Shown here: piece by piece, positions 24,386 to 27,113 of the stretch
Layout of the letters: each line of letters starts with the position of its first letter
How positions within the stretch are numbered: the first letter of the stretch is position 1
Assembly: GCA_019456345.1 (NCBI GenBank)
Contig: VRUB01000003.1
Span: 1 to 46,446 of the forward strand
Source of the DNA: Nitrospira sp.
GTDB lineage: Bacteria > Pseudomonadota > Gammaproteobacteria > Acidiferrobacterales > SPGG2
Length of the DNA stretch: 46,446 bases
Reading direction: 5' to 3'
The notes under the pieces: model-generated
Told to the model about the DNA's origin: nothing
Seen by the model: only the letters and a program-made list of their open reading frames with translations
Database searches by the model: none
Program-made: the position numbers and the translations under genes

Positions 24386-24979
24386 ATGGCAGCTCATTCC
24401 ACCACCCCCGCGCCGCGCCAGGACAACCGGCGACAGCAACTGCTCGACACGGCCGCGCGCTTGTTTCGTCAACACGGTTATCACGCCACCTCCATGCGCG
24501 ACATCGCGAGCGCCGTAGGCATGTTGCCTGGCTCTATTTACTACCATTTCGCCTCGAAAGACGAGCTACTGGTCACGGTCTATCGCGAAGGCGTGTCGCG
24601 CATAGCCGAACGCCTCGATGCCGCCGTGGCGGGCAAAAAAGAGCCGTGGCAGCAACTGGAGGCGGCCTGCATCGCTCATCTGCAAACCGTGCTTGACCAC
24701 AGCGACTACGCGCAGGTCGTCATCCGGGTCCTGCCTGATGACGCCCCTGCGGTAAGGGTACGACTCGCGGCCTTGCGCGACCAGTACGAAGAGCGCTTCA
24801 AAGACCTGGTGGCGGCCCTCGATTTACCCGCTTACGTCGACCGGCATTACCTGCGCTTGCTGCTGCTCGGGGCGCTGAACTGGTCGCAGGTGTGGTACCG
24901 GCGCGGTGGCGACTCGCCGCGCACCATCGCGAAACGTTTCCTGCAAGTACTGCACGGAATTCAAGCGCAGCAGCGATGA
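24386..24979 (+). CDS. TetR/AcrR family transcriptional regulator
   Basis: N-terminal HTH (LFRQHGYHATSMRDIA..GSIYYHFASKDELL) and a KstR2-like C-terminal domain. Confidence 0.95.
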   Translation: MAAHSTTPAPRQDNRRQQLLDTAARLFRQHGYHATSMRDIASAVGMLPGSIYYHFASKDELLVTVYREGVSRIAERLDAAVAGKKEPWQQLEAACIAHLQTVLDHSDYAQVVIRVLPDDAPAVRVRLAALRDQYEERFKDLVAALDLPAYVDRHYLRLLLLGALNWSQVWYRRGGDSPRTIAKRFLQVLHGIQAQQR

Positions 24980-25419
24980 GCATGAACCACCCGTTCGATG
25001 CCGATGAGCGCCCGCCCAAGGTCCTGGTCACCAAGATTGGTCTGGACGGTCATGATCGTGGGAGCCGCATTATCGCGGCGTACCTGCGCGACGCGGGCAT
25101 GGAAGTCGTCTACACCGGCCCGTGGCAAGAGATTCCCGCCGTGGTCGAGCTGGCGATACAGGAGGATCTTGATGTGATCGGCGTCAGCTCGCTCGCAACC
25201 GATCACCTGCTGGTGCCGAAGCTGATGGCGGCCCTGCGCGATGCCGGCCTGGCACATATCAAGGTGGTCGTCGGCGGCATTGTGCCCGATGAGGACGAAG
25301 CCTCGCTGCTGGCCGCGGGGATAAGCAAGATATTTCACCCCGGTAGCCCGCGCGAAGAAATCGTATCCGAGATATCTCGCTTGAGCGCCGATGCACGCGC
25401 CGCATCAGGGACAACATGA
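24976..25419 (+). CDS. Acyl-CoA mutase small (cobalamin-binding) subunit
   Basis: [10 protein letters not shown] (DxHxxG), [17 protein letters not shown] overlap with tetR. Confidence 0.93.
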
Positions 25420-27113
25420 AGGAGAACATGATGAACCAGCAACCGATGCAGCTAGCGCTGCCCGGGTTTGAGCGGGCCCACGCAACGTGGCGACAACAAT
25501 ATGCCGCACAGATTGGCGATCGCGACAGAATCTACAACCGTTCCGGCATTGATATTAAGCCGCTGTACACGCCTGACGACTGGGATAGCCATCGCTATGT
25601 GGAGGACCTGGGGTTTCCCGGCCAGGCGCCGATGACCCGCGGCATTTATGCAACCATGCATCGCGGCCGCCCCTGGAGCCAGCGCCAGCTGGTCGGTCTC
25701 GGGGTACCGGAAGACTATAACGCTCGCCTGAAAGGTATGCTTGCCGCCGGTGCCTCGGCCATCAGCCTGATTCCTTGTAACTCGGTCTATCGCGGCGTGG
25801 ACATAGACGAAGTGGATCCGCTGATCTTAGGTACCTGTGGCACCATCGTGAATTCGGTCCAGGATATGGACATCTGTTTGCGCGATATTCCGATCGATAA
25901 GATCTCCACAGCACTCAACGATCCGCTTCCGTTTACCCTGCTCGCCTTCCTGCTTGCTGTCGCCAAACGCCGTGGAATCCCCTGGTCCAGGATCACCGGT
26001 ACCTCCAATCAGAGCGATTACATATCCCACTTTGTCGCCAATCACATGTTTTTCCGCATCGCGCTGGCCGGATCACGGCGCATTCTGGTCGACCATCTCC
26101 AGTTCACCAACAAGCATGTGCCAAACTGGAATCCGGTGTCGGTCGTGGGCCAGCATATGCAGCAAGCGGGCGCCACACCCGCTCAGGCCATGGCATTTAC
26201 GCTATGCACGGCGATTCAGTACGCGGAGGACTGCATGGCGCGCGGCATGGCGCCTGACAGCTTCTTGCCGCGTTTCACATTTTTCTTCGACCTATCGATA
26301 AGCTTCTTCGAAGAAATCGCGAAGTTACGGGCGGGGCGACGCGTGTGGTCACGGCTCACGCGCGACCGCTTGGGCGCCACGGACTCGCGTTCCTGGCATT
26401 TCAAGTTCCACGCACAGACATCAGGCGTTGACCTCACGCGGCAACAGCCCCTGAATAATATTACTCGCGTCACCGTGCAGGCGATGGCGGGTTTGCTCGG
26501 GGGGCTGCAGTCCTTGCACACGGACGCCTACGATGAGGTGTTCAGCACGCCGGTTGCCGAGGCCGCTCGTGTGGCGGTGAGCACACAGAACATCCTGCGC
26601 GACGAGGCGCGCCTTGCCGACGTCATCGACCCGTTGGGTGGCTCTTATTATATGGAGACGCTGACCAACCAGATGGAACAAGAGATCGAGAAGATTATCG
26701 TCCAAATCGATGATACCGGCGGTATGTACAGTGCCGTCGAAAGCGGGCTCGTGCAGAACATGATCGGTGCATCCGCACTGGCCTTCCAGGAACGAGTAGA
26801 ACGCGGGGAACAGAAAATCGTGGGCGTCAATGCCTTTCAGGCCGACGAGGACTCCGCGCGACACGCGCCGCTTGAGCGACCCGAACCAGCCGCGATTGAA
26901 GCGCAGCTCGCGCGTCTCAAAGCCTTCAAAGCCGCGCGCGATCGCGCAAGCGTACACGCGGCGCTGGATGCGCTGGTGGCGGCCGCCAACAGCGAAAATC
27001 AAAACGTTTTCAAGCATGTGGTGGATGCCGCCGCGGCGGGAGCAACCCATGGCGAGATCATCGGGGTGCTGCGGCGCGAGCTGGGCTTCGGTGAGCCGCT
27101 GGTTATAGTGTGA
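25416..27113 (+). CDS. B12-dependent acyl-CoA mutase large subunit, pivalyl-CoA-mutase-like
   Basis: [28 protein letters not shown] and DPLGGSYY motifs; specificity positions Leu (RQL) and Asn (HFVAN). Confidence 0.9.

Follow-up and report, generated by a model that had tools for sequence, protein, structure and literature searches.

A split B12-dependent acyl-CoA mutase, probably of the pivalyl-CoA mutase type, and its gene cluster in an uncultured gammaproteobacterial lineage

Two coupled mutase genes and their signature residues

The window analyzed here is the whole 46,446-nucleotide stretch of contig VRUB01000003.1 (positions 1 to 46,446, forward strand), from assembly GCA_019456345.1, which is filed as Nitrospira sp. 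and placed by GTDB in the gammaproteobacterial order Acidiferrobacterales. Positions 24976-27113 on the plus strand hold two translationally coupled genes whose ends overlap by 4 bp, and which encode the subunits of a B12-dependent acyl-CoA mutase that we assign to the pivalyl-CoA mutase (PCM) clade:

24976-25419, plus strand: small, B12-binding mutase subunit of 147 aa (PF02310, 84.5 bits), with a DGHDRG stretch, a DxHxxG-type motif
25416-27113, plus strand: large, substrate-binding mutase subunit of 565 aa (PF01642, 542 bits, profile positions 3-512 of 512)

The small subunit scored 126.7 bits against TIGR00640 (cut-off 57.45). Two starts were considered for the large subunit; the ATGA-coupled one at 25416 gives 565 aa and Met6, at 25431, gives 560 aa. 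Most database relatives (560 aa), as well as the reference protein Xaut_5043 of Xanthobacter autotrophicus Py2, start at the equivalent of Met6.

The initial annotation, made from the letters of the sequence, had set this pair apart from methylmalonyl-CoA mutase (MCM) by three motifs of the large subunit, and all three are literally present: RQLVGL at residues 90-95, an 11-residue motif at residues 199-209, and GQHMQQAG at residues 245-252. Alignment to solved structures with phmmer placed the Leu of the first motif on MCM Tyr89 and Asn209, the last residue of the second, on MCM Arg207, while the third paired with GYHMQEAG of the human and P. shermanii MCM. In MCM, Tyr89 and Arg207 hold the substrate carboxylate. 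The check set beforehand was whether a proper alignment shows Leu/Asn or Tyr/Arg at these two positions; it shows Leu/Asn, and the observation stands.

The same alignments matched RQLVGL to RQYAGF in human and M. tuberculosis MCM, to RQFAGF in the P. shermanii chain of 5req, and to RQIAGF in 2-hydroxyisobutyryl-CoA mutase (HCM; 4r3u), and FVAN to FMVR in MCM and YMAQ in HCM. An additional difference, beyond those pointed out initially, lies in a 15-residue stretch of the large subunit that aligned with SVAFDLATHRGYDSD in MCM and STDFDMPTLMGYDSD in HCM. The Ala-Phe-Asp stretch of MCM is Ile-Pro-Cys in the window protein, and Ile119 aligned with the Asp of the HCM STDFD stretch, which we take to be Asp117, a specificity determinant. 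The residue numbers used for the reference enzymes are Tyr89, Arg207, and Tyr243 in MCM (P. shermanii numbering), Ile90 and Asp117 in HCM, and Phe598 and Gln742 in IcmF.

Comparison of the window protein with the best 120 hits of a search of 5.8 billion proteins (121 rows in total) disclosed that Leu92, Ile119, Pro120, Cys121, Asn122, Asn209, Gln246, and His247 are invariant in 121/121 rows, as is the GQHMQQ motif. Such invariance of Leu92, Asn209, Gln246, Pro120, and Cys121 argues that the signature did not arise by chance.

The pivalyl-CoA mutase clade and the Xanthobacter reference enzyme

These best 120 hits were all 68-99% identical to the large subunit. Most of those bearing a name were called methylmalonyl-CoA mutase or acyl-CoA mutase family protein, and one JGI record (P0011, 77% identity) was already named 'pivalyl-CoA mutase large subunit'. 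Mislabeling as MCM by automated pipelines, which had been anticipated, is found in the databases: within the 90%-identity cluster to which the window protein itself belongs, records carry the name 'methylmalonyl-CoA mutase' or 'acyl-CoA mutase large subunit family protein'. The annotation is corrected here, in that a protein cluster publicly labeled methylmalonyl-CoA mutase is PCM-type. The family is sharply bounded. In a library clustered at 50% identity, the clade was represented by one full-length protein (P0125, 62% identity, 772 bits) and fragments, and the next full-length matches, at 44% identity with 488 and 457 bits, carried other signature residues. Together with the plasmid records described below, this puts the identity gap at the edge of the clade at 61-68% versus at most 44%.

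Alignment and a tree with the other mutases had been proposed as the way to examine the assignment, and they placed the window protein in the PCM clade, apart from the other mutase clades. The tree (IQ-TREE quick search, LG+G4) used 78 of the 137 assembled rows and omitted 13 rows with a fragmentary or frameshifted-looking signature print as well as the library representatives after the 55th. All 21 signature-bearing rows formed one clade, with a support of 100 in the SH-like approximate likelihood ratio test (SH-aLRT) and a stem of 0.47 changes per site. Xaut_5043 was nested within this clade (sub-clade support 99), the window protein grouped with P0011 and two related loci (L002 and L003), and the three other mutases of the same genome all fell outside.

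Members of the clade span several phyla, and six are plasmid-borne; in the tree, a metagenome-assembled genome (MAG) of Desulfovibrionaceae pairs with a Diaphorobacter plasmid. The phylum spread, the plasmid carriage, and this pairing point to horizontal spread of the mutase. A search of 60 relatives from the order found one copy (E ≤1e-150) in 5 of the 8 other genomes of the window's family and none in the 52 genomes from eight other families, some of which are incomplete. Within the order of this lineage, the module is confined to one family.

Among plasmids, tblastn returned 417 matching records, six at 60-80% identity and 411 below 60%; in the matches listed, the seventh and all later rows were at most 40% identical. 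One of the six close matches is pXAUT01 of X. autotrophicus Py2, which carries Xaut_5043 with Xaut_5044 just upstream. The large subunit of the window is 65% identical to Xaut_5043 over 559 residues and the small subunit is 68% identical to Xaut_5044. At the positions of the three motifs, Xaut_5043 has RQLIGL, FIANH, and GQHMQQAG. Exact-sequence look-up in UniProt gave the names 'Pivalyl-CoA mutase large subunit' for Xaut_5043 (ABS70241.1, A7IQE5) and 'Pivalyl-CoA mutase small subunit' for Xaut_5044. The statement in the initial annotation that Leu/Asn marks the two-subunit pivalyl-CoA mutase of X. autotrophicus is borne out by both these residues and this name.

Kitanishi, Cracan and Banerjee, writing in J Biol Chem in 2015, reportedly found that PCM isomerizes isovaleryl-CoA and pivalyl-CoA and does not act on isobutyryl-CoA; pivalate-degrading Thauera have reportedly been studied as well. 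Full-text searching of the literature library used here brought up no paper about either the two-subunit pivalyl-CoA mutase or the degradation of pivalate by bacteria, a result that says nothing of what is in print. The window pair and the Xanthobacter enzyme share split subunits with the small-subunit gene first, 4-bp gene overlaps, and the Leu, Asn, GQHMQQ, and Pro-Cys loop features. They differ in setting: the genes are plasmid-borne in Xanthobacter, whereas those of the window are chromosomal in an uncultured Acidiferrobacterales-like MAG.

Gene neighborhood and a putative operator

The mutase genes lie in a cluster of two operons, one with tetR and the mutase (plus strand) and one with ligase and ATP-binding cassette (ABC) transporter genes (minus strand), which diverge from a common 228-bp intergenic region. 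Their other features are as follows:

24386-24979, plus strand: TetR-family regulator of 197 aa (PF00440, 71.6 bits; PF17932, 60.6 bits), its stop overlapping the small-subunit start (ATGA)
24353-24376, no strand assigned: 24-bp palindrome TAAAACAAAC-AGTC-GTTTGTTTTC in the promoter region between the divergent operons, 10 bp upstream of the start codon of TetR
22169-24157, minus strand: AMP-forming acyl-CoA ligase of 662 aa (PF00501, PF23562), first gene of the divergent operon
21366-22157, minus strand: LivG-type ABC ATPase, 70% identical to its Xanthobacter counterpart
20390-21325, minus strand: LivH-type permease (PF02653), 63% identical to its Xanthobacter counterpart
19170-20246, minus strand: LivM-type permease (PF02653), 56% identical to its Xanthobacter counterpart
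17736-19058, minus strand: periplasmic substrate-binding protein of 440 aa (PF13458), 53% identical to Xaut_5035
16913-17728, minus strand: LivF-type ABC ATPase, 71% identical to Xaut_5034
15579-16826, minus strand: PaaK-family CoA ligase of 415 aa, 49% identical to Xaut_5040
14992-15435, minus strand: hotdog thioesterase of the YiiD_C type, with no tblastn match in locus L029

The cluster proteins are 47-71% identical to their Xanthobacter counterparts. TetR is 47% identical to Xaut_5045, which has the same relative position, and the 662-aa ligase is 57% identical to Xaut_5039 and 55% identical to a gene of the Diaphorobacter plasmid. In Xanthobacter the order is TetR, small subunit, large subunit, MeaB, PaaD-type thioesterase, and PaaK-like ligase, followed by a ligase/ABC block comprising a 659-aa AMP ligase, an ABC ATPase, two permeases, a binding protein, and an ABC ATPase; the Diaphorobacter plasmid (L036) shows the same gene order. 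A TetR gene upstream, an AMP ligase of about 660 aa, a five-part Liv-type ABC importer, and a PaaK-like ligase are therefore common to the window and Xanthobacter, whereas the ligase/ABC operon is co-directional in Xanthobacter and divergent in the window, and the thioesterase is PaaD there and YiiD_C here. The YiiD_C thioesterase corresponds to the PaaD-type Xaut_5041 by function and not by homology. A pivalate-type module of regulator, mutase, importer, and ligases is thus conserved between an uncultured gammaproteobacterial lineage and a cultured alphaproteobacterium, in which it lies on a plasmid. Among solved structures, the 415-aa PaaK-family ligase comes closest to phenylacetate-CoA ligase (139 bits) and then to 2-hydroxyisobutyryl-CoA synthetase (92 bits), and it is a candidate for a small-acid (pivalate) CoA ligase.

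Thirty related loci were compared. The small-subunit gene lies directly upstream of the large one in 29 of them, the exception being a 1.4-kb fragment (L021), and a TetR match lies directly upstream on the same strand in 17. The module adjoins AtuA and an acyl-CoA carboxylase in L019, a branched-chain 2-oxoacid dehydrogenase in L003, and a thiolase with acyl-CoA dehydrogenases in L011 and L014. These neighbors fit a link to isovaleryl-CoA metabolism.

An initial repeat search gave only a repeat inside the ligase gene, and the palindrome was found by an inverted-repeat script allowing one mismatch. It is the only match in the window, where 0.05 would be expected by chance. With up to two mismatches allowed, 12 of 18 loci, the window included, had the motif AACAAAC-N4-GTTTGTT in the 160 bp that precede the TetR start. 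Because the window itself supplied the motif and some of the loci are closely related, the 12 do not count as independent observations. The remaining 340,558 bp of the same 18 loci contained two sites. The six loci that lack the motif include Xanthobacter, which has a different palindrome. We read the palindrome as a putative TetR operator for both divergent operons, with binding and an effector presumed; it offers a testable candidate for the operator of the regulator. A B12 riboswitch was also sought: no Rfam match reached the gathering score in the whole window, and below threshold the segment 27050-27600 gave only a chance-level small RNA match (E 0.73). A promoter and terminator scan of 24050-27650 found sites no more frequent than in shuffled sequence.

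Further features lie downstream of the mutase. A separate acyl-CoA block, 3 kb from the mutase, spans 30421-35657 and contains a short-chain dehydrogenase/reductase, an acyl-CoA dehydrogenase, an APH-type phosphotransferase, DUF6285, and an acyl-CoA synthetase (NF006020, 894 bits, above cut-off). Near the mutase, 29206-30354 encodes a binding protein of the Peripla_BP_2 family that matches BtuF weakly (72.5 bits, cut-off 234). Its open reading frame overlaps one of the Diphthami_syn_2 family on the opposite strand, and one or the other of these frames has probably been called too long. Between the mutase and a convergent HIT-family gene, at 27229-27464, lies a 236-bp segment with 25-nt inverted-repeat ends that are 88% complementary. 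Its counterpart in the 95%-related locus L001 is 94% identical and in the opposite orientation. With the core of the segment, about 110 nt, BLAST gave another 45 matches, spread over 34 other contigs of the genome of the window. The segment looks like a repeat of the miniature inverted-repeat transposable element (MITE) or repetitive extragenic palindromic (REP) kind, inverted or inserted independently.

Proposed function and alternative substrates

We are confident that the two genes encode a two-subunit adenosylcobalamin (AdoCbl)-dependent acyl-CoA mutase of the PCM family that interconverts pivalyl-CoA (2,2-dimethylpropionyl-CoA) and isovaleryl-CoA (3-methylbutyryl-CoA), the predicted activity of the window enzyme following from its orthology to the Xanthobacter protein. 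The pair of PF02310 and PF01642 domains, the Leu/Asn signature, the position in the PCM clade, and the common gene cluster all agree with the initial description as a split B12 mutase other than MCM. Judging from the aligned residues, Leu92, Ile119, Pro120, Asn209, and Gln246, hydrophobic or uncharged residues that replace the carboxylate-holding ones of MCM, should form an uncharged pocket with room for a tert-butyl or isobutyl group, and binding of a carboxylated substrate is almost certainly excluded. The family has already been characterized and the window pair is an ordinary further member, so there is nothing here to surprise a specialist.

In AdoCbl-dependent acyl-CoA mutases, homolysis of the Co-C bond yields a 5'-deoxyadenosyl radical that abstracts a substrate hydrogen; the thioester carbon then migrates to the neighboring carbon and the hydrogen is returned. 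In the proposed pathway, the Liv-type ABC system would import a neo- or branched-chain acid, and one of the two cluster ligases would convert it to its CoA thioester. By a radical 1,2-shift of the thioester carbon, the mutase could then turn the quaternary carbon into an iso-skeleton open to beta-oxidation, from which the leucine/isovalerate pathway would continue. TetR may repress both divergent operons at the conserved palindrome until an acyl-CoA or acid effector appears.

An isovaleryl-CoA route in the genome of the window is plausible, although an isovaleryl-CoA dehydrogenase was not among the genes identified. A contig of this genome (C217; L037:4946-11878) carries, in a row, an amino-acid dehydrogenase, 2-oxoacid dehydrogenase E1 alpha, E1 beta, and E2, a carboxyltransferase, and an enoyl-CoA hydratase. 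All of these except E1 alpha score below their model cut-offs, and the best match of the hydratase is near the gamma-carboxygeranoyl-CoA hydratase model, also below cut-off. This row is likely a leucine/isovalerate catabolic cluster.

Several observations weigh against this reading. The biochemical properties of the reference enzyme rest here on its UniProt name and on the reported work of 2015. Because pivalate occurs rarely in nature, such a widespread family may have a broader physiological substrate. No MeaB gene adjoins the mutase, and tblastn over the whole window gave no MeaB remnant (best E-value 0.068), whereas MeaB follows the large subunit in Xanthobacter and lies directly downstream of the mutase in 25 of the 30 related loci. 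In addition, the 10-residue pocket loop of the window protein differs from the SLLPCCSGFR of Xaut_5043 (Ile119/Asn122/Val124/Tyr125 in the window, Leu/Cys/Gly/Phe in Xanthobacter), and the characterized Xanthobacter enzyme belongs to a different sub-type from the window protein, the two sub-types being split by nine positions conserved at ≥85% within each (119, 124, 125, 150, 154, 216, 258, 367, and 375). As to MeaB, three of the five loci without it (L006, L021, and L027) are contig ends, and the other two, L001 (95% identity) and L002 (76%), resemble the window in that a convergent HIT-family gene follows the mutase. The genome itself has a MeaB beside another mutase, on contig C236, and a G-domain inside its IcmF. 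An adjacent MeaB is a property of the PCM locus and does not define the enzyme.

The sub-types raise an alternative reading, in which the substrate would differ within the same clade. The window form of the loop (Ile119/Val124/Tyr125) is shared by every one of the best 120 hits and by L001-L004, L006, L019, L024, L025/26, and L036, and the other form, SL-L-PC[NC]S-GF-R, is found in Xaut_5043, Prescottella, Nocardioides, Roseovarius, and others. The comparison took in 67 rows, made up of the window, 26 loci, and one in three of the hits P0005-P0124; 50 had the window form (A) and 17 the Xanthobacter form (B); position 119 served to define these groups and so does not count independently among the nine. 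That the sub-type with Ile119/Val124/Tyr125/Leu367/Val375 prefers another branched acyl-CoA, for example a longer 2,2-dimethyl or another 3-methyl-branched one, appears unlikely. Five of the nine positions (119, 124, 125, 367, and 375) do lie in active-site motifs, position 119 corresponds to the Asp of STDFD in HCM, and the 662-aa ligase is similar to long-chain ligases (FadD11 model, 305.8 bits, below cut-off). The changes are conservative, however (Ile/Leu, Tyr/Phe), sub-type B is nested inside sub-type A in the tree, and the use of position 119 to define the groups lessens its value as evidence. Moreover, Diaphorobacter L036 (sub-type A) and Xanthobacter (sub-type B) have the same ligase and ABC importer at 44-72% identity, and a common importer and ligase across the sub-types argues for the same substrate. 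We give little credence to the idea that the sub-type of the window is adapted to some natural acid, branched or with a quaternary carbon, that is not pivalate. Were this so, the conserved TetR-operator/ligase/ABC-importer module would represent a widespread environmental pathway for neo-acids.

Assignments outside the PCM clade are less probable still. The Pfam family is named MM_CoA_mutase, NCBI and JGI label cluster members 'methylmalonyl-CoA mutase', and the window protein has the fold and B12 chemistry of MCM (1req, 2xij), with 283-339 bits to solved MCMs. Nevertheless, Leu, Asn, and Gln stand in place of the carboxylate-binding Tyr89, Arg207, and Tyr243 of MCM, the last being the Tyr of GYHMQEAG. 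With NF006944, the NCBIfam equivalog model for MCM, the protein scored 429.9 bits, below the cut-off of 876, and another mutase of the genome, on contig C220, carries the Tyr/Arg pair. An MCM, as in several database labels, can be practically dismissed.

Marginally better, yet very improbable, is a 2-hydroxyisobutyryl-CoA or isobutyryl-CoA mutase. HcmA (4r3u) is the best solved relative by sequence (366 bits), and HcmAB resembles the window pair in its split large and small subunits and in acting on a tertiary or quaternary carbon next to the thioester. In contrast to the window protein, it keeps the Tyr of GYH, belongs to a different clade, and has Ile for Leu92 and Asp for Ile119 (RQIAGF, STDFD). 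IcmF carries out the same radical rearrangement and shows weak pivalyl-CoA mutase activity; PMC10481361 states that it interconverts pivalyl-CoA and isovaleryl-CoA as well. It differs by a fused G-protein domain and by a Phe/Gln signature, which the genome's own IcmF has in the columns where the window protein has Leu/Asn, and only residues 223-541 of the window protein align with solved IcmF (174 bits). Furthermore, the same genome already has an HCM-signature mutase (C236) and an IcmF (C352), and the tree puts neither with the PCM clade. The evidence is most consistent with the pivalyl-CoA/isovaleryl-CoA mutase proposed above.

Counting the window pair, this 3-Mb MAG (84.6% complete) encodes four B12 mutases. 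The mutase on C220 (L039:5702-9706) has Tyr/Arg, is MCM-like, and lies between an enoyl-CoA hydratase and a CaiB-type CoA-transferase, while C352 carries a 1093-aa open frame with Phe/Gln, a fused IcmF. On C236 (L038:4279-8382), a PaaK-family CoA ligase, MeaB, and the large subunit of a split mutase stand in a row. The signature of this mutase (Ile, SVDFDMPTLM, YIAQK) is the HCM pattern, and the row looks like a 2-hydroxyisobutyrate-type cluster.

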